DNA of 64,000 bases from Candidatus Multivoradales bacterium. Its GTDB lineage: Bacteria > Acidobacteriota > Thermoanaerobaculia > Multivoradales > JAHEKO01. The position numbers and the translations under genes were made by a program. Shown piece by piece: positions 18,696 through 48,767 of the stretch. A model generated the notes under the pieces. That model saw only the letters and a program-made list of their open reading frames with translations. It did no database searches and was not told the DNA's origin. The stretch is from assembly GCA_965223855.1 (NCBI GenBank), contig CBDCXM010000009.1, positions 2,848,001 to 2,912,000 of the forward strand, written 5' to 3'. Within the stretch, counting starts at the first letter, position 1. Every line of letters begins with the position of its first letter.

Positions 18696-20294
18696 TCAGG
18701 GCACGGTTGCCGACCACGCCGCAGTGTCGCCGCTCTCGAAACCGTCGGCGAACACCAGCGGATCGCCGCCGATCTCGACGCATTCGCTCGCCGGCCCGAA
18801 GCACGACGGTCCGGAAGCCCCGATCGGAATCACGACGTACCCGTACCGTCGCCCTTCGAGGACCTCGGGATCGCTGAAGGCGGTGGCGCTCGTCGCACCG
18901 ATGAGGATCCTGCCGAGGTCGCACCCGAGAGGCCCGTCGGTGCGGTAGACCGAGTACGAGGCGGCTCCCGCGACGCCGGTCCAGGCGAGGTCGATGGCCC
19001 CCGCATTCGTGGAGGCCGTCAGGGCCGGAGCCTCGGCGGGTCCGCCGAGGCAGCCGCCGTCGATGACCACCGGCCCGCCGTTCGCCGGCGTACAGCCGAT
19101 CTCGTGGCGGTCGAAAGCGGCGGCGATGGCGCTCATGTTGGGAGTGCCGTTGGCGAGGTTGCCGTCGTCGTCGTCAGCCGCCAGCAACTGAAGATACGCC
19201 TGGCCGGCGCCGCAGCCGGCCGCCCCGGGCGGAGGACCGGCGAGATCGAACCAGCCGGAAGCGTTGCCGCCGCCGACATAGGTGAGGCGCGTCGTGACTT
19301 CCTGCGCGGTCCCCGAGTCGAAGCCACGCTCCGCACCAAGATCGCGAACGTAGAGGTCCCAGATCGCCTCGGAGTAGGCGGCGCCGACGCACTGCACGGT
19401 GCCGCCGCAGTTCGCGCGCACCCAGGTCAACGTGTGCGGCGAACCGGAGACCCGGTCCTCCCAGTCGATCGTCCGAATCCCGTCGCAGGTGACGCACGGA
19501 TCCCCGTAGCCGCTGCAGGTCGAGCCGGACAGCAGGAGCCCGCGGCCGATGCAGGCGTCGGCCAACCGCAGGGCGGAGTAGACGTCGGCGATCCCTTCAC
19601 CGCCCCCCTGGCCCGAAGTCACGATCGCACCGCTGGCGTCGTTCTGGTCCATCCCGTGGCCCCACTCGTGGTCGAGCACGCTCGCGATCTGCCCGGGGTT
19701 GGCACACGGCCCCATCTCCTGTGAGGTGCGCACCCGGGTACCGTCCCAGAAGGCGAAGCAGCTCGCGATGTCGAGATTGACCTCGGCCTCCACCTGCCCG
19801 CCGAGCCAGCCGTTCGCGGGCAGGTAGCCCCGCGCCTGCTGAGCGATCCTGTTGAGCTCGTAGAAGGCGGTTCGGGAGGCCGCGGTGTTCCCCGGCGAGG
19901 CCCCGGCCGGGATGTCGCAATCGACGTCTCCGTCGCTGCCGCCCAGAGCAATGTCGCCGTCACCTCCCTCGCTCAGGGCGCCGCACTGGTCCGTGATCGT
20001 CACATGGCGACCGGAGAGCGTCGTCGTCCTCGTGCCGGTCGCGGTGAAGCCGCCGCTGCTGTCGGTGAAGCTGCCGTCGCCGAGGTCCGCGTACGGCATC
20101 GGCGCCTCGAGATCCATGACCCCGCCGGGAGCGGCTCCGCCGTAGGTCAGCGGGTAGACCCCCCCGGTGAGGCTGCGAGCCATCCCCTCGCCCTGCGCAC
20201 CGCCTCCCGCGGGCGCGCTCGCTCGCGCCCCGCTGTCCGGCATTGCAGCGAGGGCGTACAGCAGGCCCGCCAGCAGCGCTCCCGCGGGCATCAC
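18696..20294 (-). CDS. Secreted M4/M36-like zinc metallopeptidase with C-terminal FADGFESGD motif
   Basis: Signal-like N-terminus, HEWGH plus downstream GEGIAD third ligand, FnIII-like region, ends LVFADGFESGDTAAWSATVP. Confidence 0.75.
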   Translation of the reverse strand: MMPAGALLAGLLYALAAMPDSGARASAPAGGGAQGEGMARSLTGGVYPLTYGGAAPGGVMDLEAPMPYADLGDGSFTDSSGGFTATGTRTTTLSGRHVTITDQCGALSEGGDGDIALGGSDGDVDCDIPAGASPGNTAASRTAFYELNRIAQQARGYLPANGWLGGQVEAEVNLDIASCFAFWDGTRVRTSQEMGPCANPGQIASVLDHEWGHGMDQNDASGAIVTSGQGGGEGIADVYSALRLADACIGRGLLLSGSTCSGYGDPCVTCDGIRTIDWEDRVSGSPHTLTWVRANCGGTVQCVGAAYSEAIWDLYVRDLGAERGFDSGTAQEVTTRLTYVGGGNASGWFDLAGPPPGAAGCGAGQAYLQLLAADDDDGNLANGTPNMSAIAAAFDRHEIGCTPANGGPVVIDGGCLGGPAEAPALTASTNAGAIDLAWTGVAGAASYSVYRTDGPLGCDLGRILIGATSATAFSDPEVLEGRRYGYVVIPIGASGPSCFGPASECVEIGGDPLVFADGFESGDTAAWSATVP

Positions 20295-20298
20295 GCCA

Positions 20299-20736
20299 TC
20301 AGCCGGAGTGCGAGATCAGGGCGCCGAGAATCGCTCCACCGATCGCCCCGTTGATCATCGCCGCACCGCCCTGGCACCACGCCAGGTAGTACGGGAAGTC
20401 GGCGATCACGATCGGGTCGTAGAGATTGCCGAATGTGGCGACCAGCCCCATCAGTACACCGAAGACGATGCCGCCGACCGGCCCGGCCGCCCACGCGCCA
20501 CGGGTGCGATGAAACAGGTAGGCGAGCAGCAGGTAGGTCGCGAGCGAGATGGCGAGAAACGAAAACGGGCTCGACTGGGTCTGAGAGAAGACCGTGTCCA
20601 GCCGGGCGTAGGTATCTCCGAGCATCATGCCGTGGAGCACGAAGTCGACGAGCCAGCCGACGATACCGGCGACGATGCCGGCGATCGCCCAGCGCCCGGT
20701 CGAGGCACTACTGTTGACGGGAGTGGGGAAGGGCAT
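20299..20736 (-). CDS. Hypothetical integral membrane protein (about 4 TM)
   Basis: Four hydrophobic segments and a GGAG RBS upstream. Confidence 0.75.
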   Translation of the reverse strand: MPFPTPVNSSASTGRWAIAGIVAGIVGWLVDFVLHGMMLGDTYARLDTVFSQTQSSPFSFLAISLATYLLLAYLFHRTRGAWAAGPVGGIVFGVLMGLVATFGNLYDPIVIADFPYYLAWCQGGAAMINGAIGGAILGALISHSG

Positions 20737-20871
20737 TGAGCGTCTCCTTTCCGAGCGCCACGGACAGGCCCCCTGCCGGGCAGCTTCGAGGATGGGAAGG
20801 ATTGTGAGTGACCGGAGTCTAGCGCGTGGAGACCCTGTCGCCGGGTCATCGTTCCTCGCCCGTCCGCCCGG

Positions 20872-23538
20872 TCAGGGCAGCGCCAGCCCCGAGAGCTTGA
20901 ACCATCGCCCCTCACGGAACGCCGGTCCCAACTCCCCCTGGGCCGACAGCGCACTGTGGAAGGAGATTCCGGCCACCCCCTCGCTCTGCACCCAGCGGGT
21001 CAGCCCCTGATAGAAGCTCACCGGATAGGTCCAGTCGTCGGAGAAGTAGAACGACACCAGTGGAGCCGAGCCCGTGAGGGCAGTGGCGTCCTGAATTGCC
21101 TGGACCCAGTACGGGCTCGTGCTGGGGACCCAGTAGTCCCCGAGCATGACCAGCAGCAGGTGATCCGACAGCGCCGCCAGATCTGCGAGATTCTGGTGCC
21201 CGAGCTCGCCGGACGCGAGGTTGACCGGTGTACTTGTTCTCGCGTGCCGAGCGGAGAGACGGCCGACCGACTGTGGTGATCCCCGGTCTTTCCTGCCTGG
21301 CCTCGGTGAAGAGAGTCTGCGCAAGCTGGGTGATCTGAGCTTCCGGCCAATCCTGGGGTGACGTCGGGCAGCTCGAGTGGCCCACGGTGTCGTCCGACGG
21401 ATAGGACGGAAGCTGTGAAAAGTAGTGATGCGTCAGGAGGATCCCGTCGATCGGATGGGAAGCGGCCAACTCGGTCATTCGTGCGGAGATCTCGGAGCGG
21501 TACTGCGGGACGCACGGCGAGATGAAGAGATTGGGATGGGAGCTGCCTCCGTTAGTCGGTCTTGCCCATGCAACCGCTGCGTCCACTCGGGGTGCTCGGA
21601 ACCGGTCTGACGGTCTGCAAGGGTCGAGAAGGCCGCCCATACCTCCAGCCCGGAGTTGTGTGCCGCGGCGACCAGCGGCCCGAGAGCGTCGCCACGGAAG
21701 CGGGAAGCCTCCGCGGTCGGGTAGTAGAGGAAGCCCCGAGCCGACTTGACGGTCAGAATCAGCGTGTCGAACCCGGCCTCCAGCGAGCGCTCGACCACGA
21801 AGTCCGCCCCGTGCTCGAGGACGTCCGATGGGTTGAGAAAGACCGCCTTGGTCCCCATCAGCGCCGCCCCTCCCTGCTGCCGGATGGCCTGCACTCGGGG
21901 GTGGACGTCGTGCGCGAACGAGGGCGGCGGAGCGTTGTTCGTGGGCGGCTGCGTGGGGCTGTCGTAGTAGAAGGGGTTCTGCGTGAGGTCGCTGCCGAAG
22001 CCCCGGTGGTTCTCCATGTTGACCCAGCCGGAGCCGGCGAACCAGACCGCCCCCGACGGTGACGAGGGAATGCCGAGCGCGCGCAGATAGAGACTCATGG
22101 GCCAGCGGGGGAAGCCGCTGGTGAACCCGAAGTGCTGCGCCAGCTCGGCGATGTTGCCTCCCCCGAATCCCTCGAACTGGGACTGTCCGCTGGTGTAGAG
22201 GACGTCGTTCTGCCATCGATCGATCACCCAGGTGAAGATCGACTGTGCCGCGGCCTGCCGATCCGTCGCGCCACCTACGATCTCTCTCGCCTGGAGGAAC
22301 GCCTCGGGGCGATGCGCCGGCATGGCGTAGTAGGAGCGAGAGCGGTTGGCCTGCTGGAGGCTGGCGGAGGTAGAGGTCAGCACCGACGTGTACTCGGAGA
22401 GTGCATCGGGCGCCGTCCAGCCTCCCAGGCCCTGAGGGGCGATGATCGACTTGTCGAGTCTCTCCGGCCACTCGTCGAAGAACTCCAGAGCCCGCACCAG
22501 GGAAGCCGCGTAGTAGAGCGCTTCGGGGAAGCGAACGGCGTGTCCGTCCACCTGGAAGGTGTCGGGAGCGGCGCCGCTATCCGGCAGCTGCGCGGCCAGC
22601 TCGCCGAGGACCGAGGGGTACTGGTCGCTGGTCCATGGAGTGAGCTGAAACTCGGGGACGAGCGTGATCGTCGGGTAGGGCGAAGCCGGGTCCGCAGCCG
22701 AACCTGCTCGCACCGTCGCCGTCGTGCCGGCCGGTGTTCGAAGGTGCTCGATCGCTGCGAACAGAAACTGTGCCGAGCTCAGCGAGAATCCGCCGACCTC
22801 CACCTCGGACGGCAGCCGCCGATGCGTTTCCAGGAAGGCCGCCAGATCTGCCGCTGCCGCCATCAGCTCCCCGCGCTCGAGGCGGATTTCGGGTCGCCGG
22901 ATGGGAACCACCGGCGAGCTGCCGTTGGTGACCCCCAGCGCCGCCTCGCCCTCGCTGGCGCCGCCCTCGGAGGCGAGGCCGAGGAAGAAGGTGCTCTGGC
23001 CCGGACACAACGCCGGCCGGAAGCCGACGACGAGATGGGCCCCGGCTCGCAGTGCACCCCCCAGGCCGACGGTCCCGATCCCTCCGCCGGTCACGACGAA
23101 GAGATCCTCCTTCGCTCCGTCGCCGTCGAAGTCGAGAGGGACGTGCGGCCCGACGTTGCGCAGGACGAGGTTGTTGATGCAGGCGGGGGCTTCGAGCGGA
23201 TCCTGATCGAGGCCGCTCAGATCCACCCGGTACAGGTAGGCGGTGAGGCCCTGGCCCGTCGTCCCCCGCTGACCGGGCGGCCAGACTCTGCTCTGCACGA
23301 ATCCCTGTCCCGACGTCCCCATCAGCGCGAGCGGCGAGGTCGAATCGGAGACGGTGACCCGGCAGTCCACATCGAAGACGCAATTGATCGCCGGCGCCGA
23401 TACCTCGACGATGTCGAGACCCGCGAGAGGCAGGGCGGCCAGGACACCGGCGACGACCCAGAGTGCGGCCGGACGCCCCGTGCCGGGGAGGCTCTTTGTG
23501 TCTGCCGCCGGTGTGCGCAAGGGTGCGAATCCGAACAT
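20872..23538 (-). CDS. Large secreted multidomain protein (unknown domain, pseudomurein-binding-repeat-like, transglutaminase-like, GHL10-like glycosidase), interrupted by two compensating frameshifts
   Basis: ATG at 23538 after GGAG. Coding sense runs through ORF 21475..24279, then the frame of 20912..22471 from about 21565 to about 21240, then 20872..21324 (same frame as the first part). Confidence 0.65.
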
Positions 23539-23639
23539 GGTGTCTTCTCCTCTCGGGTAGGTGTTCCTGCTCGCCGCGCGAGCCCACACTCGCGCGGCAG
23601 AGGGCCTCGGACCAGGTTCAGGGCCAGGACGTTGCGTCT

Positions 23640-24212
23640 CTAGGCCGAACTCTCGAACCGCAGAATCTCGATCTCGTAGAGGCTCCAGTCGGGGCACTCG
23701 ATCCGCAGCAGGCCGAGACCGCCGTCGCCCGAGTCGAAGTCGAGGAAGAGCTCGTCGAAGCCGCCCGAGATCTGGAAGTCCTGGTGTGCCAGGCCGGTAC
23801 CGAGGGTGACCGCGCGGACGTCGAAGGTGACGGAACTCGGCGCGCCGACGGAGATGCGCGCCAGGTAGCTGCTGTCGGGCTCCAGACCATGGAGCCAGGC
23901 ATCGGCGCGACCGGTAGGCTGCCCGGCCTCCGGCACGAAGCCGATGTTCGGGCCGTCCGGAAACACGCTGCGTGGATTGAGCAGATCGAGGTAGCCCCGG
24001 TCCTCGACCCAGGGCACCTGAGCCGAGAGGACGACGTGCGTCGTCAGTTCGATGTGGTGGTTGGTCGGCACGATCCGGGCGTCGACCAGAGCCGACAGGA
24101 ATGCCGCTTTGTCCAGTCTGGTGAACGTCCGGGGTTCGATCCGTTGCGCGTTCCCCTTGCGATCGAGAACGCCGGCGATTCGGGACGGCCTGCTGCCCTT
24201 CCTGCTCATCAC
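23640..24212 (-). CDS. Hypothetical protein
   Basis: 190-aa ORF with a GGGAG RBS and globular beta-rich composition, co-oriented with neighbours. Confidence 0.6.
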   Translation of the reverse strand: MMSRKGSRPSRIAGVLDRKGNAQRIEPRTFTRLDKAAFLSALVDARIVPTNHHIELTTHVVLSAQVPWVEDRGYLDLLNPRSVFPDGPNIGFVPEAGQPTGRADAWLHGLEPDSSYLARISVGAPSSVTFDVRAVTLGTGLAHQDFQISGGFDELFLDFDSGDGGLGLLRIECPDWSLYEIEILRFESSA

Positions 24213-39378: not shown

Positions 39379-40455
39379 CTACGGACGTTCGTCGTGAGCT
39401 CTCGACGCTCGCTTCCAAGCCTCGATAACAGATTCGAGAAGTGCTCCAAGTGGATTCCTGAGCGATGCCCAGTTCTTCGCCGTGATCTCCACCTCCAGGC
39501 ACGCCCAGGACTTTTCGATCCGGCGAGCCTGCGGGATCGCGGCGCAAAGGACCGTGATCGCATCCTCCGCGAGGTCTGAGACCCGGGGAGGGAGGTTGAG
39601 CAGGAGCGTGCTTCGTCTCTTCGTGTCGAGGTACAAGGTCGCATAGGAGCGGAGCGAGGGGCGTCCTTCCGAGGTCTGTTCCTGCAGGCTGAACGTGAAG
39701 GCGGTCTTCCCCGGCCAGCGATAGGCGGACGCCATGCGCGACTCGATGAAGTCAGCGACCTCGAGCAGGAGATCCCTGCTCCCGAGAGCTTCCGCGGACT
39801 CCAGCAGGACCCTGAGGTTGCCCGCCTTCGACTCGCTCTTGTTACGGGCGGCTCCCTGCTGCTGGGGCGGTGTCGTTTCGACTTGCTTTGCCAGCAGGGT
39901 TTGTCCCGCGACCTCGAAACCCTGGAAAGTAAGAAGTTGGATATCGATCGCCGACGCGGCGAGGAAGTTGACGATTCGCTTGGCCCGGTCATCGACGCCG
40001 AGCCCGACCAGCACCAGCCTGGGTGGCTCGGCCAGAGGTTCGTCGTTGTCTGGATAGGTCCGGTCGTACCAATCGACGAAGTCGTCGATACGTGGGATTC
40101 CATTCCTTCCCGAAGAGGCCTCGATCAAGCCGGCGAGTCGCTCGGTCGAGGCGTCTGCGAGGTCGGATCCGTAGTCCAGAATCTGCGCGACCGCCTCACG
40201 AGTGAGCATTCCCTTCTTGAGTTCGAAGATCACCACCCGGCCGTCGCCGTCGATCCCGAGTAGGTCGAGGGGGCCGCCCTCCGTCGGCACCTGGCGTCCG
40301 ACGAGAGTGAGGTCGCTCATCAGGAGATCCGGAGACTCCACGAGCAAGTCTTCCAGCACCGCCTCGGTTTCCGATGAGTCGACCATGGGCGCCGGAGCTG
40401 CAGCCACCGACCCGGAAGAGCCGGGGGAAACCGTCCAGACTTGGATTCTCTTCAC
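39379..40455 (-). CDS. NucS/EndoMS-like PD-(D/E)XK endonuclease domain protein
   Basis: EAVLEDLL...GRQV...PLDLLGIDGDGRVVIFELKK...AVAQILDY. Confidence 0.82.
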   Translation of the reverse strand: MKRIQVWTVSPGSSGSVAAAPAPMVDSSETEAVLEDLLVESPDLLMSDLTLVGRQVPTEGGPLDLLGIDGDGRVVIFELKKGMLTREAVAQILDYGSDLADASTERLAGLIEASSGRNGIPRIDDFVDWYDRTYPDNDEPLAEPPRLVLVGLGVDDRAKRIVNFLAASAIDIQLLTFQGFEVAGQTLLAKQVETTPPQQQGAARNKSESKAGNLRVLLESAEALGSRDLLLEVADFIESRMASAYRWPGKTAFTFSLQEQTSEGRPSLRSYATLYLDTKRRSTLLLNLPPRVSDLAEDAITVLCAAIPQARRIEKSWACLEVEITAKNWASLRNPLGALLESVIEAWKRASRAHDERP

Positions 40456-40697
40456 CGGCGAGAAGGTATCAGTTGGATTTCCTAGAGGGCTGGGAGTTGC
40501 CGCACCGCCATCGCCCGGAGGCTCCAGGCTTGGAGCCAGCGTAGACTTGGCCAGACCTTGGCAGAATAAGCGTCAGGAGATGCTCGCGCCGGCGGGTTTG
40601 TAGCTCGACCCACTCATCTGCTCTGAGCAGCTACCAAGTCTCCCGGCACCAACGCAGCCCCGAGCGGCCTTCACTTCAGATTGCAACTACCGACGCA

Positions 40698-41615
40698 ATG
40701 AAAGCCTATGTGGGAGTCACCGACTACGACTGGTTCCGATTCCTCAAGTCGGGCGATGTCGAGGAGGTCAACTTCTGGCAGCCGAGCGGGAGCAACCACT
40801 TCCGAGCGCTCGACCAAGGTGAGTTGTTCCTCTTCAAGCTCCATAGCCCGAGGAACTTCATCGTCGGCGGCGGCTTCTTCGCCCACTTCTCGATCATCCC
40901 GCACCGAACGGCTTGGGAGTTCTTCGGTGTCGCCAACGGCGCTGGGTCTTTCCAGGAGATGGAGACGAGGATCGGAAAGTACCGTCGAGTGGTCCCCGAC
41001 GCTCGGTCGAGCTTCGACATCGGCTGCATCCTCCTGGCCCAACCATTCTTTCTCGATGAAGAGCTTTGGATCCCGGTGCCGGAGGATTGGAAGCCGAACA
41101 TCGTTCGGGGGAAGACCTACGACCTGACCGACGGGCTAGGACGGGAGCTCTATGCTCAGCTTCAAGTAGCTCTGGCCGGGAATGTGGCTGAGTCGGAAGC
41201 CGTGGAGCCCAGCAGTCTCTACGGTGATCCGGTTCTCGTTCGCCCTCGCATCGGACAGGGCACCTTCAAGTCCCTCGTCGCCGACATCTATCAGCGGCGT
41301 TGCGCCGTTTCAGGAGAAAAGGCACTGCCAGCTCTCGACGCGGCGCATGTCCGTGCCGTCGCGAGCGGCGGTACTCACTCCGTAGACAACGGCATCCTGC
41401 TCAGATCGGACATTCACAGGCTGTTCGACGCCGGCTACGTCGGCATCACACCCGACTACCGCTTCATGGTCAGTCGTCGTCTCAAGGACGACTTCGACAA
41501 TGGAGAGCCCTACTATCCCTTGGCGGATCGTGAGATCTGGCTTCCCGCCGATCCCAGGAATCACCCGAATCGCGAGTACCTCGAAGAGCACTGCGACACG
41601 AGATTCCGTTACTGA
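40698..41615 (+). CDS. HNH endonuclease with N-terminal putative recognition domain
   Basis: RIGQGTFK...YQRRCAVSG...LDAAHV...NGILLRSDIHRLFD (HNH_2 type). Confidence 0.9.
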   Translation: MKAYVGVTDYDWFRFLKSGDVEEVNFWQPSGSNHFRALDQGELFLFKLHSPRNFIVGGGFFAHFSIIPHRTAWEFFGVANGAGSFQEMETRIGKYRRVVPDARSSFDIGCILLAQPFFLDEELWIPVPEDWKPNIVRGKTYDLTDGLGRELYAQLQVALAGNVAESEAVEPSSLYGDPVLVRPRIGQGTFKSLVADIYQRRCAVSGEKALPALDAAHVRAVASGGTHSVDNGILLRSDIHRLFDAGYVGITPDYRFMVSRRLKDDFDNGEPYYPLADREIWLPADPRNHPNREYLEEHCDTRFRY

Positions 41616-41641
41616 GCCAACAACCCGACGGATTGGACCTG

Positions 41642-41989
41642 ATGAACCTGACCGACCTTCGAGATCTACTCCGGGAGTTCGCCCGCGATCGTGACTGGGA
41701 TCAGTTCCATTCACCGAAGAACCTGGCGATGGCACTCAGCGTAGAGGCTGCCGAGCTTCTCGAGCAATTCCAGTGGCTGACCGAGGGCGAGTCGAGGGAG
41801 CTGGACAAGCAGCAACTCGAGAGCGCGGCCGAGGAGATCGCGGACATCCAGATCTACCTCGTCCGGCTCGCGGACAAACTGGGGATAGACATCCTCGAAG
41901 CAGCCAGCACCAAGATGCGCGCCAATGCCGAGAAGTACCCGGCCGAGTCTGTCCGCGGCAGCGCGAAGAAGTACAGCGAGTACGAGTAG
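41642..41989 (+). CDS. MazG-like nucleotide pyrophosphohydrolase
   Basis: RDWDQFHSPKNLAMALSVEAAELLEQFQW...EEIADI...KYP. Confidence 0.92.
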   Translation: MNLTDLRDLLREFARDRDWDQFHSPKNLAMALSVEAAELLEQFQWLTEGESRELDKQQLESAAEEIADIQIYLVRLADKLGIDILEAASTKMRANAEKYPAESVRGSAKKYSEYE

Positions 41990-41998
41990 GCCGTCCTG

Positions 41999-44395
41999 AT
42001 GCTGGTCTACACGGCCACCAAGAGCGAGTTCGTCGCCGACGTTCAGTCGAATCGCATCGAGGCGAAGATCCTCGCCGAGTTCCAGTCGCGACTCGGCTTT
42101 TCGACCGGCGCGAGCGAGATCGCTGCCTGGCGGAACTCGATGCAGTACATGCAGAACGTCCTACTCGACGACGGCATCCCGGACGACAGCGGGGTAGCGA
42201 TCGAGTACCGCATTCCGATGACCGCGAAGAGGATCGACTTCATCCTGACGGGCCGGGACGGAAGCGATCGTGAGTCCGTGGTGATCATCGAACTGAAGCA
42301 ATGGTCAGAGGCGACATCGACGCCGCTCGATGCCATCGTTGAGACCTTCGTCGGAGGAGGCATGCGCGAGGTCGCTCATCCTTCGTACCAGGCGTGGACC
42401 TACGCGGCACTCCTGGACGATTTCAATCAGGAGGTGCAGAACTCCGATCTCAGGCTCGCTCCCTGCGCCTACCTACACAACCTCGAAGACGGTTCGTCTT
42501 TGCGAGAGGAGCACTATCGCGAGCATCTCGACCGGGCACCACTCTTCATCCGTTCAGATGTCGACCGACTGGCCCGTTTCATCAAGAACTATGTTCGCAA
42601 GGGCGACAGAGACGACCTGCTGTACAGGATCGATCAGGGGCGGATCCGCCCCTCGAAGAACTTGGCGGACAGCCTCAGTTCGCTGCTCGAGGGGAACACC
42701 GAGTTCCACATGATCGACGACCAGAAGGTCGTCTACGAGAAAGCGTTGGAGCTGGCAGCGAAGGCGGCGGAGGGGGAGAAACAGGTCCTGATCGTGGAGG
42801 GCGGACCGGGAACCGGGAAATCGGTGGTGGCCATCAACCTTCTGGTGGAACTCACTCGGAGACTGAAGACCACGCAGTACGTGACTCGAAACGCTGCTCC
42901 CCGCGCCGTGTACAAGAGCAAGCTCACAGGGACGATGACGGGGACTCGCTTCGACAACCTGTTCCGCAGCTCTGGCGGCTTCATGGAATCAGAACCGGAC
43001 GTCTTCGACTGTCTCATCGTCGACGAAGCCCACCGTCTCAACGAGAAGTCGGGGCTCTACCAGAACCTGGGCGTCAACCAGGTCAAGGAACTCATCGACG
43101 CCTCCAGATCGACCGTCTTCTTCGTCGACGATCGACAACGGGTCACCCTGAAGGACATCGGCACGGCATCGGAGATCCGGCATTGGGCCGCCATCGCAGG
43201 AGCTGAAGTGACCGAGCTGAAGCTGGCTTCCCAGTTCCGGTGCAACGGATCCGACGGCTATCTCGCCTGGCTCGACAACGCCCTTCAGATCGAGTCCACG
43301 GCCGTCGAGACACTCGAGGGCATCGATTTCGATTTCCGCGTGGTCGACTCGGCAGCTGAACTCCGCGATCTGATCCTCGACCGCAATGTCGCCGACAACA
43401 AGGCGAGGTTGGTGGCCGGCTACTGCTGGCCGTGGGCGAGCAAGAAGAATCCCGCAGCGATGGACATCGAGCTTGAGGACGGTGCGTTCCGGATGCAGTG
43501 GAACCTGACCAGGGACGGAGGGAACTGGATCATGATGCCGGACTCCGTCGAGCAGGTGGGGTGCATTCACACCTGTCAGGGGCTTGAGCTCGACTACGTC
43601 GGCGTCATCCTCGGGCCGGATCTGGTCGTGCGAAACGGCGAGGTGGTGACGGATGCGACCGAGCGCGCCAGCCAGGATCGCTCCGTGTTCGGCTACAAAA
43701 AGCGGAGCAGAGAAGACCCCGTGGGGATGGCGAGACTGGCAGCCGAGATCATCAAGAACACGTATCGCACCTTGATGACGCGAGGACAGAAGGGGTGCTA
43801 CGTGCATTCTGTCGATCCTGAGACGAACGCCTACCTCAAGGATGCGATTGGATCTCGAGTTCTTGGAAACGCCGAGTCGGAGGTGGAGCCGCTTCACCCC
43901 TTCCCTGTCGTCTCCGGAGAAGAGCTGCGGCCCTGGGAGAATGCCGTTCCGCTCTACGACCTCCAAGTGGCTGCTGGCGCCCTCAGCGAGGCGACCGAGC
44001 CCGAGGTTCTCGATTGGGTGGCGCTCCCGGAGCACTATCGAATCAGCGAGGGGCTCTTCGTCGCGCGTGTTGTTGGGGAATCGATGAACCGACGTGTCGC
44101 GAACGGTTCCTGGTGCCTCTTCAAGGCTCACCCGACCGGGAGTCGGGCTGGAAGAGTAGTGCTGGCGCAGCACCGAGAGATTTCCGATCCGGAGCTCGGC
44201 GGGCAATACACCCTCAAGCTCTACGAAGGCGGGCCGGCACTGGACGAGAGCGGCAGCCGAAGCGGTAGCGTCATCCTTAGACCGATGTCCACCGATTCAC
44301 GGTTTCAGCCCCTGGTTCTGTCTCAAGAAGTCGCCGAGGGACTGTCGGTGCTGGCTGAGCTGCTGGGAGTGCTCCTTCCCGGCTCGTCGCGTTAG
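41999..44395 (+). CDS. DUF2075 (Schlafen group 3-like) SF1 helicase with N-terminal nuclease-like and C-terminal S24 peptidase domains
   Basis: RIDF...[44 protein letters not shown]-terminal [11 protein letters not shown]...VVGESM...YTLK. Confidence 0.88.
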
Positions 44396-44441
44396 TCGAT
44401 CGCGAGAAAGCCGCGCAGAATCGAGTGGCACCTCCAGAGGG

Positions 44442-44546
44442 GGTGAAGGGGAGGATGACGCGGCCGTACTGCGACTGTTTGAAGTCGCCGCGCAGGAGGT
44501 CGGCGACGGACCAGATGAAGGAGACCTTTTCGGAGAAGCGGTTCAT
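44442..44546 (-). pseudogene. hsdM: 5' fragment (35 codons) of a type I RM methyltransferase
   Basis: [35 protein letters not shown] is a typical HsdM N-terminus. Similarity ends abruptly after ILPFT. Confidence 0.85.
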
Positions 44547-44568
44547 GGCGTGCCTCGGGGAGCGCTTT

Positions 44569-45705
44569 CTATTGGAGTGCGCCGCTCTTGTGGGTTTCGA
44601 GGAACCAATCGAGGACTACCAGGAAGTCGTTCATCCTGGATTCTTCGGCCAGCAGTGCGATGGGTATCGACGGCCGCTTGCGGAGGCGATCGCGGGGGAG
44701 TTCGATCCCGTCGATGGAGGTGAAGCGCTCGAACAGCTCTTCGAGGACGGCGTCGTCGTCGAAGGGGGCGCGACGCAGAAGGTGTTGAAACTGGAACTCG
44801 ACGCCGCCTCCGGTCCACAACGCGATCACACTCGACCAGACGCCATTGACGGTCAGGCCAGGGAAGAAGGACCCGGACTGGGCACCCTCGCCCCAGTAGA
44901 ACTCCGGCATCCGGTCTTTAGCCCAGGTGAAGAGCCTGCGGGCCGGAGCTACGGCCGCCGGATCGTTCGCCTCGAGCTCGCGGAAGAACGACTCTTCGTC
45001 CCACTTCCTCTTGGTGGTACCCGATTTCCGTTGGGTCGCCGCCGTTTGGCCGAGGAGCCTGGGAACGAGTGTCTGCAAGCCGCGGCCCGAGAACTGCTTG
45101 ATCTCCACGGCGAGGACTTCGGTCGTTCCCATCTGCTCGTTGAGGAACTCGACGACTCTTCGAAGCTCTGAGGGTACCCAGTCGGCAACGAACAGGAGGC
45201 GAAGGCGCCCTGCCGAGAGGTTCGCGCCGACCCGGACCCAAAAGTCGTCGTAGTCGAGGTCCTCCGGTTCTTCTTCGAGGAGGTCGGCTACCCTGGCAGC
45301 GGCGGCCGCGGAGTCCTCGTGTCGCTCCTCGAAGCGGCGGCGCAGCTCCTGAACCGGCAGGTGGGCGACGAGATTGGCGGCGTAGTCGAGTACTTGCCCT
45401 ACAACCTCTCGTCGAATGCGAGGATCGTCCGCACGCTTGACCTCAACAAGAGTCGGTATAGCGTCCTGATCGACGAACAGGTGGTCGAGCGACCACCAGT
45501 TGCCGCCTTCGGGTTCGTTGGGAATACCGCACTCCCGGTCGATGAGAATCCACCGGCGGGGAGTATGCTCGTTGATCTGATCCCCACCGAGCAGGTCGGG
45601 GTAGTCCTCGAGGAGGGCCTGAAGAAGATCCTCGGAGTCGTAGTCGGTCTCGTCGAGGGGGCTCAGGGAGCCCTTCTGATCGAGGAGGAAGATGCGCCGA
45701 GGCAT
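44569..45705 (-). CDS. NucS-like PD-(D/E)XK endonuclease domain protein
   Basis: SEDLLQALL...[20 protein letters not shown]...[11 protein letters not shown]. Confidence 0.8.
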
Positions 45706-45898
45706 GTGGCTTTCATCGGAAGTAGGAGCGGTCCGATGCGGTTCTCTGCAAATCGGTGTGGCGAGTGCGGCGCACTATATCGACTTGGGGCCTCCGCCCC
45801 TTCTACTTGCACTAGCGGTTGCCGGTGACGCCTGGCTGGTGGCCTCGTGCTCTGACAACGTGAAGCCGGTACGTGAAGTGGGAGTCAGCGCTCCGAGG

Positions 45899-46240
45899 TC
45901 AGGAACGAGGAGCGGAGGATCCTGCGCTCTCTTCGAAGAAGCAAGCGCGCAGCTCGTGTTCGTAGTCGCCCATTCCAGCCTCCTCGAGGAGATTGGCGAC
46001 AATCTGCCGATGGAGCGGCCGAAGGCGCTCGTTGACGAGGGTGGTCTGAGAGTAGGCTGAACTCCCCTTGCTCTTGAGTCCCTGGATCAGCCGCTCACGA
46101 AAGTCGATCTCTCGATGGACTTGGTCGGAGAGGAGGGCAAGAGTGCCAACTCTCGACGTTCGGTTCATCTCTCTGCGCTGGAGCAACAGCGCACAGACGG
46201 CAATCAGGGTTCCACCGAACCCGATGAGAATCTCAATCAC
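45899..46240 (-). CDS. Small hypothetical membrane protein
   Basis: GTG after GGGAGG. N-terminal TM followed by a helical region. Confidence 0.55.
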   Translation of the reverse strand: MIEILIGFGGTLIAVCALLLQRREMNRTSRVGTLALLSDQVHREIDFRERLIQGLKSKGSSAYSQTTLVNERLRPLHRQIVANLLEEAGMGDYEHELRACFFEESAGSSAPRS

Positions 46241-46622
46241 ACTGCCTCCCCGTGTTGTCACCGCGGCGTTTCGCGGTGTGTTCAGGACGCAATCATAGTA
46301 CGCAATATGCAAGTTCTTGGTGGCTCACCTGGGGGGTGGAGAGGGTGTCTCGCACTCGACTCTCGAGAAGGAGGCGCAAGGATTGTCTGGGCGCCGCGAT
46401 TCACCTGCGTGGGGTGCAGTCGCGACGGAGGACAAAGAGGAGTCGTAGGGCGGGTGCCGTTGATGCTGTCCCAGACGGCTTCATCCCGCGTCAGCACTAT
46501 GTCGATGTGCAGACGCCCATCGACGAGAACTCGGCGAGGTTGGGCGAGGGCTGAGCACTGCGTTCGCGCAGCGAGCCGGTGACCGTTGGTTGCAGGAGCC
46601 TGTTGCCAGGCGCTGTCGGAGG

Positions 46623-46883
46623 TCAGGCTTCGTCGATCGCGGCCTTGAGCGGGAACCTCTCCGGGTGCTCGATGGACTCGACGGCGAGGTCCACATCGAG
46701 TTCTGGCCAGTAGAGGTGGTGGTTCTGCGGACGCTCCACGTTCAGGATCGCCTCGACCGATGCTCCCTTGAACCAGGGGAACTCCTCGAAGGGAAGGAAG
46801 AGTTCACGATCCCCAAGAAACACCCAGAAACCGTGCCGAGAGATGTTGGTGATCTCAGCCTCCGAAATGACGCTGCCAGGCAT
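46623..46883 (-). CDS. DUF2442 domain protein (putative antitoxin)
   Basis: HGFWV...LPFEEFPWF...LYWPELDVDLAVESI. Confidence 0.85.
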   Translation of the reverse strand: MPGSVISEAEITNISRHGFWVFLGDRELFLPFEEFPWFKGASVEAILNVERPQNHHLYWPELDVDLAVESIEHPERFPLKAAIDEA

Positions 46884-47094
46884 TCCAGATCTCCCGCTCG
46901 TGTTCCTCGATGAGTTTCTCTATCCGGCGAAGGTCCGGGCTTCCGAAGCCGTAGTTCCTGGCGAGCTCGATCTCGGGCTCGACCCAGAACTTCGCCTCAC
47001 CTTCTGCCGAGACGACATGGATGTGGATCCTGGGTTCCTCCCGCGAGAAAAAGAAGAAGCGGAACGGTCCCGCGCGGAAGACTGTCGGACTCAC
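46855..47094 (-). CDS. DUF4160 domain protein (putative toxin)
   Basis: PTVFRAGPFRFFFFSREEPRIHIHV...AKFW...AWQRHFG. Confidence 0.88.
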   Translation of the reverse strand: MSPTVFRAGPFRFFFFSREEPRIHIHVVSAEGEAKFWVEPEIELARNYGFGSPDLRRIEKLIEEHEREIWNAWQRHFGG

Positions 47095-47147
47095 CGGCCT
47101 ATTCTATCGCCCATCAGAGTCTGACCCCTCGTGCCGCCGAGGGGCCG

Positions 47148-47176
47148 TTGCCACTGCGCCCCCGATCCCCTATGAT
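47148..47176 (+). promoter_or_regulatory. Sigma70-type promoter for tRNA-Thr
   Basis: TTGCCA, 17 nt spacer, TATGAT. Confidence 0.7.
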
Positions 47177-47221
47177 CCCGTCGCTCAGACGGACTGGCCC
47201 GCCAGGCGCCGTCAACCAGAA

Positions 47222-47297
47222 GCCGATGTAGCTCAGCTGGTAGAGCAGCTGATTCGTAATCAGCAGGTCAGCGGTTCGAGTCCGCTCATCGGCTCCA
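47222..47297 (+). tRNA. tRNA-Thr(CGT)
   Basis: Acceptor GCCGATG/CATCGGC, D arm GCTC..GAGC, anticodon stem GCTGA-TTCGTAA-TCAGC, GGTTCGAG T loop, encoded CCA. 76 nt. Confidence 0.97.
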
Positions 47298-47357
47298 CAG
47301 TCAGCCTGGCACCCAGTTCACGCATCCACTCCGTTGCACGCGGGGTAGGATCGCCGC

Positions 47358-48767
47358 ATGTTCTCGATCGACACGTATGTCTCCCGCCGGCGTCGGCTGG
47401 CGGAACGGATGAGTGCGGCCGGAGCGAGCGGCCTTGTGCTGGTGATGGGCAACGACGAGGCGCCGCTCAACTACCGGGACAACCACTATCCGTTCCGGCA
47501 GGATTCCTCGTTTCTCTACTTCTTCGGCTTGAATGAGGCGAATCTGGCCGGGGTGATCGATCTCGACAGCGGGGCGGAGACGCTCTTCGGGCACGAGCCG
47601 ACGCTCGACGACATCGTCTGGACGGGGCCGTTGCCGTCGCTGGGGGAGCGGGCGGAGAGTGTCGGAGTCGGGGCGGCGATGGATATCGGCCACCTGGGAG
47701 AGACGGTGCAGCGGGCGCGCTCGGAGGGGCGCACGGTGCACGTGCTGCCGGCGTACCGCGGCGACGGCGTGTTGAAGCTCGCCGGGGTGCTGGGGATCGC
47801 TCCTTCGGAGGTCGAGGGGGCGGTGTCGGAGGCGCTGGTGCGCTCTGTGATCGCGTTGCGCTCGCCCAAGGAGGCACGGGAGGTCGCCGAGATCGAGAAG
47901 GCGCTCGAGGTGTCGTTCCACACGCATACGGCGGCGATGAAGGCGACGAGGCCGGGGCGCTACGAGTGGGAGGTGGTGCGGAAGGTCGAGGCGTGCCATG
48001 CCCGGCATGGCTCGCCGGTGTCGTTTCCGATCATCCTGAGCGTGCGCGGCGAGGTGCTCCACAACCATGCGCACGGCAACCGGATGGAGCCGGGGCAGCT
48101 GGTGGTGCACGACTCGGGGGCGACATCGCCGGAGGGGTACGCCTCGGACATCACGCGGACGTTTCCCGTGTCCGGGACGTTCGATACCCGGCAGCGAGAG
48201 ATCTACACGATCGTGCTGGAGGCGCTGGAGGAGGCGACGCGGGCGGTGAAGCCGGGGATGCCGTTCATCGACGTCTACAAGACGGCGGCGCGCTCGCAGA
48301 TGGAGGGGCTGAAGGCGCTCGGGCTGGTGCGGGGCGACACCCATGAAGCTGTGGAGCAGGGAGCGCATGCGGCGTTCCTGCAGTGCGGTACCGGGCACAT
48401 GATCGGGCTCGACGTCCACGACATGGAGGGGCTGGGCGAGGAGCTGGTGGGCTACGACGACACGATCCGGCGCTCGGAGCTCTTCGGGGTCTGCTACGTG
48501 CGGCTCGGGCGCGCGCTCGAGGCGGACTGGGTGGTGGCGGTGGAGCCGGGGATCTACTTCATCCCCGAGCTGATCGACCGCTGGTCGGCGGAGGGGAAGT
48601 ACGCCGACTTCATCGACTGGGAGAAGGTCGCGGCCTACCAGGACTTCGGCGGGGTGCGGATCGAGGACGACGTGCTGGTGACCGCCGACGGCCACCGGGT
48701 GCTGGGGCCGCCGATTCCGAAGACGGTGGCGGATGTCGAGGCGATCGTGGGGCAGGACGAGGAGTAG
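47358..48767 (+). CDS. Xaa-Pro aminopeptidase (aminopeptidase P family)
   Basis: FRQDSSFLYFFG, YASDITRTFP, GHMIGLDVHD, VEPGIYF, GVRIEDD. Confidence 0.93.
   Translation: MFSIDTYVSRRRRLAERMSAAGASGLVLVMGNDEAPLNYRDNHYPFRQDSSFLYFFGLNEANLAGVIDLDSGAETLFGHEPTLDDIVWTGPLPSLGERAESVGVGAAMDIGHLGETVQRARSEGRTVHVLPAYRGDGVLKLAGVLGIAPSEVEGAVSEALVRSVIALRSPKEAREVAEIEKALEVSFHTHTAAMKATRPGRYEWEVVRKVEACHARHGSPVSFPIILSVRGEVLHNHAHGNRMEPGQLVVHDSGATSPEGYASDITRTFPVSGTFDTRQREIYTIVLEALEEATRAVKPGMPFIDVYKTAARSQMEGLKALGLVRGDTHEAVEQGAHAAFLQCGTGHMIGLDVHDMEGLGEELVGYDDTIRRSELFGVCYVRLGRALEADWVVAVEPGIYFIPELIDRWSAEGKYADFIDWEKVAAYQDFGGVRIEDDVLVTADGHRVLGPPIPKTVADVEAIVGQDEE

Follow-up and report, generated by a model that had tools for sequence, protein, structure and literature searches.

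Two kinds of described protein come closest to the one treated here, which is encoded on the minus strand at positions 20872..23538 of a 64-kb stretch (hereafter the window; approximately 68% GC, no N) of contig CBDCXM010000009.1 from Candidatus Multivoradales bacterium. The first kind comprises PeiP and PeiW of the Methanothermobacter phages psiM2 and psiM100, in which four pseudomurein-binding repeats (PMBR) are joined to a Peptidase_C71 domain with a Cys-His-Asp triad (PMC2989375). These repeats are described as tandem motifs of 30-35 aa, at least three of which are needed for wall binding (PMC2989375, PMC3210951), and their hallmark is given as a highly conserved Pro at position 28, which follows a helix and is flanked by hydrophobic positions (PMC3210951). 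The second kind is represented by Cwp19, an autolysin of Clostridioides difficile that belongs to GHL10 (structures 5oq2/5oq3) and is described as peptidoglycan-degrading (PMC5765458, PMC6016235), with D195, D196 and Y197 following barrel strand 4 (PMC5765458). For the GH151 alpha-L-fucosidase ALfuk2 (6tvk) the nucleophile is reported to be D154, at the end of the same strand (PMC10154630).

The protein of the window shares traits with both kinds. With a probability that I estimate at approximately 55%, it is a secreted or surface-located multidomain protein of 885 aa that acts as an extracellular glycan-active enzyme. Its module combines PMBR-like repeats, a transglutaminase fold with Ser in the position of the catalytic Cys, and a TIM barrel with GHL10 and GHL6 as relatives. 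GHL10 also includes DigH (YddW) of E. coli, which hydrolyses denuded glycan strands, and GHL6, a family of Pfam, is presumably linked to GH151. In literature searches, no description of an architecture of repeats, transglutaminase fold and barrel was found.

Layout and family of the module

A signal-like N-terminus is followed by an N-domain with four Cys, two duplicated segments of approximately 75 aa, the transglutaminase-fold domain and the TIM barrel. The features are as follows:

20872..23538, minus strand: whole gene, 885 aa in the short-read contig version, three frames in the window
23404..23538, minus strand: signal-peptide-like or anchor-like N-terminus, residues 1-45, read from the translation
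22897..23403, minus strand: N-terminal four-Cys domain, residues 46-214
22669..22893, minus strand: repeat segment A, residues 216-290, units U1 and U2, with the Pfam PMBR match at residues 220-246
22429..22653, minus strand: repeat segment B, residues 296-370, a duplicate of A, units U3 and U4
21928..22425, minus strand: transglutaminase-fold domain, residues 372-537
21871..21927, minus strand: Pro-rich linker, residues 538-556
20875..21870, minus strand: TIM-barrel domain, GHL6/GHL10-related, residues 557-885 of the read-through

A preliminary description of the locus had placed the gene exactly, and the peptide strings it quoted are all found on the minus strand. Its outline of a secreted-looking bacterial protein, with no evident catalytic Cys in the transglutaminase-like part and a TIM barrel at the C-terminus, agrees with what is reported in this section.

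An exhaustive HMMER search of 1.84 billion representative proteins yielded 515 library proteins at E<=1e-3 and 47 at E<=1e-30, which is far beyond chance. Among the 149 listed non-self matches, 39 cover residues of approximately 215-660 in one stretch at 27-38% identity, and the remaining 110 match the N-domain only. The alignment used throughout (A1) contains 33 of these 39; P0007, P0008, P0080, P0119, P0120 (>1400 aa) and P0111 (barrel-only) were omitted. All 33 aligned homologues span the module, from approximately position 10 to approximately position 667 of the 671 in the profile, and the repeats, the transglutaminase fold and the barrel form one module of approximately 670 aa. Some homologues end in a Por_Secre_tail, which serves sorting by the type IX secretion system (T9SS; 9/34), or in a dockerin (6/34), TSP3 repeats also occur, and further domains are Ig-like, PKD, cadherin-like and VWA. 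As some homologues carry T9SS, dockerin or TSP3 tails, the module family appears to be one of exported bacterial proteins. It is an uncharacterised and by its sequences secreted family, to which no fewer than 39 of the 149 listed representative clusters belong, and in which each component is known and the fixed combination of three parts has both of its catalytic signatures altered. In the host lineage the module is rare: it was found in none of 40 relatives, where only the N-domain was matched, in 4; among 400 other genomes of the phylum it is present in one, and a single weak barrel-only match was obtained in addition.

An AlphaFold2 model of residues 215-687, built with alignment A1, has a predicted local distance difference test score (pLDDT) of 87.7 and a predicted template modelling score (pTM) of 0.84, so that the mutual arrangement of the domains is predicted with confidence. 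The single-sequence model of the 687-aa open reading frame (ORF) was useless (pLDDT 32), and a fold search against BFVD gave nothing relevant.

The transglutaminase-fold domain has the core fold of these enzymes, and a Cys-His-Asp triad is absent from it. S474 (codon 22117-22119) stands in the column of the catalytic Cys, H511 (codon 22006-22008) in that of the His, and D517 at the third triad position. In the Cys column Ser occurs in 32 of 34 sequences, with Cys and Asp once each; the His column is His in 33/34, and the third column holds Asp in 18 and Glu in 5 of the 34. The lone Cys belongs to P0043, which is also the lone member above the Transglut_core cut-off (27.3 vs 23 bits; the window reaches 12-13 bits), and since the same protein alone has the Cys and alone passes, the Ser column is taken to be the catalytic column. 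In this respect the window protein differs from the Pei enzymes with their Cys triad, and would differ from the bacterial transglutaminase-like 'putative cysteine proteases' (3isr, 3kd4), whose name implies a Cys protease, and from TgpA (6g49). The Pei proteins also have short repeats with Pro after the helix, approximately 150 aa in all, ahead of a transglutaminase- or papain-like domain; unlike the window protein they are without a barrel, and there is no significant sequence or profile similarity between the two. Peptidase_C71 (PF12386) gave no hmmscan match at E<=1, and hhalign of A1 against PeiP gave a probability of 0.1%.

The barrel appears from its profile matches to descend from the GHL10/GHL6 lineage and to be a canonical member of neither family. 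Among solved structures its profile matches Cwp19 best (E 1.1e-12, covering strands 1-5), and next the fucosidase 6tvk of GH151 (E 2.9e-8). GHL6 matches 25/34 members and GHL10 15/34 at E<=1; several members pass the GHL6 (PF14871) cut-off of 35 (P0003 38.9, P0027 38.4, P0043 47.9, P0089 44.2, P0101 39.5), and at least five pass that of GHL10 (PF02638), which is 27.9 (P0003 30.4, P0005 30.3, P0007 28.0, P0043 36.1, P0089 29.9). Conserved residues of the barrel include N569, D572 (34/34), K598 (33/34), D642 (32/34), D789 and E832 (28/34, plus 3 Asp), and in the modelled part conserved polar residues lie at the C-terminal ends of strands. Like Cwp19, the protein is surface-located or secreted by its sequence and joins a barrel to repeats, which in Cwp19 are wall-binding CWB2 repeats; Cwp19 has no transglutaminase domain. 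A further difference is that D195, D196 and Y197 of Cwp19 are not kept in the window family. After strand 4 the window has Thr-His-His in place of Asp-Asp-Tyr, and the D154 of ALfuk2 aligns with a variable column, occupied by Thr in the window protein. Strand 7 of Cwp19 ends in Gly, and that of the family in D-E-W, the strand number being inferred beyond residue 687. The earlier label 'GHL10-like' thus holds for ancestry only, as the barrel is without the GHL10 Asp-Asp, and does not extend to the catalytic site.

At the N-terminus, R8, K15 and R22 precede a hydrophobic stretch (residues 24-41), and a GGAG-like motif lies immediately upstream of the ATG; this N-terminus would be a signal peptide or an anchor. 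The N-domain that follows is found in 110 of the 149 listed non-self representatives, in proteins of 121-1888 aa, and begins within the first 60 aa in 93 of these 110. Its C53, C59, C120 and C178 are each 86-89% conserved. It has no match in Pfam or NCBIfam, and its closest ESM Atlas clusters are solely bacterial hypothetical proteins of approximately 200 aa. It may be a sorting or anchoring domain that follows the signal peptide. The four Cys of the N-domain, together with two conserved Cys of the barrel (C675 in 31/34, C723 in 28/34), fit an extracellular location.

Reading frames and integrity of the gene

On the minus strand the gene starts with the ATG at 23538-23536 and stops at 20872-20874. 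As assembled, however, the frame-0 ORF ends at 21475 after 687 aa. The frameshifts mentioned in the preliminary description are confined to two short zones:

21554..21565, no strand: frameshift zone 1, where the window has 2 bases more than every crossing contig (X1, X2, X3, both X4)
21226..21268, no strand: frameshift zone 2, where the window has 7 bases more than the crossing contigs

Frame 0 is used from 23538 to approximately 21565, frame 2 from there to approximately 21227 and frame 0 again to 20875. The frame thus changes near 21560 and near 21226, so that the IDGILL motif is read in a different frame from the start of the gene, whereas the C-terminal third shares the frame of the start. 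The three pieces are collinear in nine homologues (tblastn).

A sequencing-run search found four public runs (2 samples, 1 study) with 51-96% of the sampled words, and the Logan contigs of these runs were placed on 20800-23600. A single X1 contig spans 20976-23600 and differs from the window by 2 substitutions and exactly the 9 gaps. In zone 2, X1 and X2 omit 4+1+1+1 bases, and X3 skips 79 with 72 letters between. The X4 contigs of zone 1 are two, one of them from a diverged strain. When the nine bases are deleted by script, a single intact ORF of 885 aa results. The homologue in another genome of the phylum (G093) is one ORF of 790 aa that reads through both zones, and the read-through sequence of the window resembles it over both. 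Since the contigs lack the nine bases, the homologue in G093 is intact, and the nearby genes for AcrB (1036 aa), GlnRS (569 aa) and SAHH (492 aa) are uninterrupted, I conclude that the population carries an intact gene, and that the shifts of the window most likely arose as local errors of the consensus where strains vary. Strain heterogeneity within the gene may explain such errors; apparent frameshifts in this assembly can be artefacts.

Within 20800-23600 the strains differ in their distance from the window: the X3 and X4 contigs carry up to 40 substitutions in 1843 bases, X1 only 2.

Likeness of the repeats to PMBR

Segments A and B are a true internal duplication (hhalign probability 72%, E 3.3e-5, 52 columns). 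Segment A consists of strand, helix, an R..P motif and strand, followed by strand and helix, and the secondary structure of the predicted model lends itself to a division into four strand-helix-strand units, approximately 35 aa long, with a conserved Pro following the helix. Between the units, hhalign gives a clear match for U1-U3 only (probability 50%). R240 and P243 of segment A each occur in 31/34 sequences; in segment B, P325 occurs in 27/34, and R336, R349 and P358 in 33/34 each.

Against the Pfam model for PMBR (PF09373, gathering cut-off 24.9 bits), hmmscan gave no match at E<=1 on the 687-aa ORF and none at E<=5 on the repeat region of 152 aa alone. In a six-frame scan of the whole genome, the best match to PF09373 is nevertheless found at residues 220-246 (13.2 bits, E 0.68), although 11 of 14 control genomes also give matches at E<=10. 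Weak matches are present in 6/34 family members, four on U1 and two on U4, and none reaches the cut-off; the best scores 20.1 bits (E 6.4e-4), where PeiP, as positive control, scores 133.9 bits. In the match of the window and in all six of the family, Pro 28 of the model falls on P243 or P358, if an ungapped register is assumed. Searches aimed at PMBR of the S-layer type from Methanobacteriales yielded one partial match to PeiP in a Nanoarchaeota metagenome-assembled genome (contigs), 6 phage records, 6 proteins and 7 IMG/VR loci, and the reference set of PMBR consisted of 23, later 34, repeats of the Pei type only, which is a narrow set. Compared with these 23-34 phage repeats, the repeats of the window reach an hhalign probability of at most 16%; the best local match of the 34-repeat profile in the 671-column module is U3, at full length and in register. 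In a Foldseek search PeiP (8z4f) is found at rank 4 (E 0.028, probability 0.63, 290 of 300 columns, root mean square deviation 15.3) and is the sole entry without a barrel among the matches listed. Neither VIA list has PeiP among its first 50 entries, which says little, as these lists are filled by barrels and transglutaminases. The repeats have no usable match in the ESM Atlas.

Of 401 genomes from the phylum, 4 have a match above the PF09373 cut-off; these matches fall on single C-terminal motifs of Helicase_C proteins, which are not wall proteins. As the model passes on such proteins, it recognises a generic helix-Arg-x-Pro-strand motif, and weak matches mean little. True homology of the repeats to PMBR stands at somewhat less than even odds, and specificity for pseudomurein is far less likely still. 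What the preliminary description said of PMBR-like repeats is retained as to duplication and likeness, and given up as to membership of the Pfam family (13.2 vs 24.9 bits). If the repeats are true relatives of PMBR, the label 'pseudomurein-binding' of PF09373 is too narrow.

The proteins with a C-terminal helix-R-G-R-L/I-P motif (L014-L018, from G329, G152, G087, G401 and G251) are approximately 700 aa long, have weak Helicase_C matches and score 24.3-29.7 bits with PF09373. They are probably of the type that older reviews called 'bacterial PMBR proteins', and are unlikely to be wall binders; matches to PF09373 in bacteria need care. Another protein, P0156 (497 aa, from a JGI metagenome), joins a DUF4015-like barrel (E 0.004) to two strong PMBR repeats (48.7 bits) and to a domain resembling Peptidase_C39. 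The kinds of part are thus those of the module of the window, in another order. The protein comes presumably from a methanogen or its virus.

Proposed function, competing explanations and neighbourhood

If the protein is an extracellular glycan-active enzyme, the barrel would be its catalytic part, with an extracellular polysaccharide as substrate. Most plausibly this would be a polymer of amino sugars, for instance the glycan strands of peptidoglycan or an exopolysaccharide, a best guess by analogy with Cwp19 and PgaB. In place of the strand-4 acids of Cwp19 and GH151, the barrel would use D572, D642 and E/D832, with which strands 1, 3 and 7 end on their C-terminal side, and if active it would represent a new catalytic variant of the GHL10/GHL6 lineage. 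As the three parts are inherited together and their packing is predicted to be rigid, the repeats and the altered transglutaminase domain may hold or position the polymer, packed on the barrel as one unit.

Several observations weigh against this proposal. The barrel pieces of the window score below the Pfam cut-offs (GHL6 32.5-33.4 vs 35; GHL10 16.8 vs 27.9 for the middle piece), and residue 832, Glu in most members, is Asp in the window. The strand-4 columns are not acidic: an acid is present at 702 in 2/34 sequences (Ser 9, Thr 7, Met 5, Ala 4, Asp 1, Glu 1 of 34) and at 703 in 6/34, and with these acids missing, catalysis is uncertain and the barrel may serve for binding instead. There is no conserved operon, the neighbours being without family and the one beside the G093 homologue different. 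The window assembly is itself frameshifted, and the contigs that repair it are not raw reads and derive perhaps from the same samples as the assembly. An alternative would be a pseudogene in this strain, with real shifts and a protein that stops at residue 687 with a third of the barrel. Both shifts and the stop at 21475 are indeed in the assembled window, but its version is backed by no zone-crossing contig of the four runs, the middle piece still codes for family-like sequence out of frame, and AcrB, GlnRS and SAHH close by are intact; this reading, very improbable, was rejected on the zone-crossing short-read contigs. Loss of catalysis in both enzyme-like domains would instead leave an adhesin or glycan-binding protein that merely binds a polymer or a surface. 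Such a protein would account for the missing Cys of the transglutaminase fold and the missing strand-4 acids of the barrel, and its homologues bear Ig-like, PKD, cadherin-like and VWA domains, which are typical of adhesins. However, the polar residues on the catalytic face of the barrel (D572, K598, D642, E832), which are invariant or nearly so, and the retention of Ser and His point to a site, not a surface, as the object of selection, and I regard a purely binding role as decidedly unlikely.

The remaining alternatives take the likeness to the Pei enzymes further than the proposal of a glycan-active enzyme does. In a bifunctional wall lysin, PMBR-type repeats would bind the wall, a Ser474-His511-Asp517 hydrolase would cut peptide stems or amide bonds, and the barrel would cut glycan. 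Retention of Ser in 32/34 and His in 33/34 sequences is consistent with this, as are the identical order of repeats and transglutaminase-like domain in PeiP, the fourth match of the Foldseek search, and the peptidoglycan-degrading activity of Cwp19, a relative of the barrel. Asp is however found in only 18/34 sequences in the third triad column (Glu in 5), and no serine nucleophile is known on a transglutaminase fold, which also counts against such a hydrolase, so that a lysin of this kind is rather unlikely. A bolder version is quite improbable: a Pei-type cassette of four PMBR-fold units and a transglutaminase fold would occur beyond methanogens and their viruses, as an old wall-targeting module that bacteria fused to a glycosidase barrel, and with Ser474-His511-Asp/Glu517 the protein would act as a lysin with two heads, one for the peptide and one for the glycan of a murein-type wall, bacterial or archaeal. 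It would provide the first serine nucleophile on the transglutaminase fold, a new chemistry for that fold, and a bacterial candidate for the cleavage of pseudomurein glycan, a polymer on which, according to a review of 2011 (PMC3210951), no known glycosidase acted. The preliminary description read the repeats as archaeal-type pseudomurein-binding ones and considered it possible that the enzyme targets Methanobacteriales, by binding or degrading their walls, or that the gene was acquired from archaea or their viruses. The genome's best PF09373 match on residues 220-246, the six weak matches of the family with the hallmark Pro in register, the in-register match of the Pei-only profile on U3, the Foldseek match to PeiP and the similar combination of DUF4015-like barrel, PMBR and papain-like domain in P0156 speak for this. 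Against it, all PMBR scores are below threshold and the hhalign probabilities at most 16%, helicase-like cytoplasmic proteins of 4/401 genomes exceed the PF09373 cut-off, the homologues bear bacterial sorting tails, and specificity for pseudomurein would not follow even from true homology to PMBR. The composition of the gene (GC 0.68, GC at third codon positions, GC3, 0.83) is like that of its neighbours (GC 0.66-0.73, GC3 0.86-0.92). Both the archaeal type of the repeats with its methanogen wall function and the cross-domain acquisition are thus abandoned as very unlikely. A recent, though not an ancient, transfer from a low-GC methanogen is ruled out by the match of GC and GC3 with the neighbours.

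From an AcrB/HlyD pair nearby, the host would be Gram-negative. A scan for promoters and terminators found none. The gene is flanked by two ORFs, neither of which is conserved beside the G093 homologue (L023):

20299-20736, minus strand: 145-aa multi-pass membrane protein, with a weak DUF1761 match (E 0.0013)
23640-24212, minus strand: ORF of 190 aa without family

Two genes downstream, a 532-aa ORF (18696-20294, minus strand) has an H-E-W-G-H motif of the HExxH type and an Fn3-like C-terminus (3mpc, E 0.065). No family of Pfam gives a match to this ORF at E<=5, and the product may be a secreted metalloprotease of an unmodelled family. Elsewhere in the window, positions 40001-48000 have a GC content of 0.61-0.64, compared with 0.66-0.71 in the rest, and may be a foreign island.

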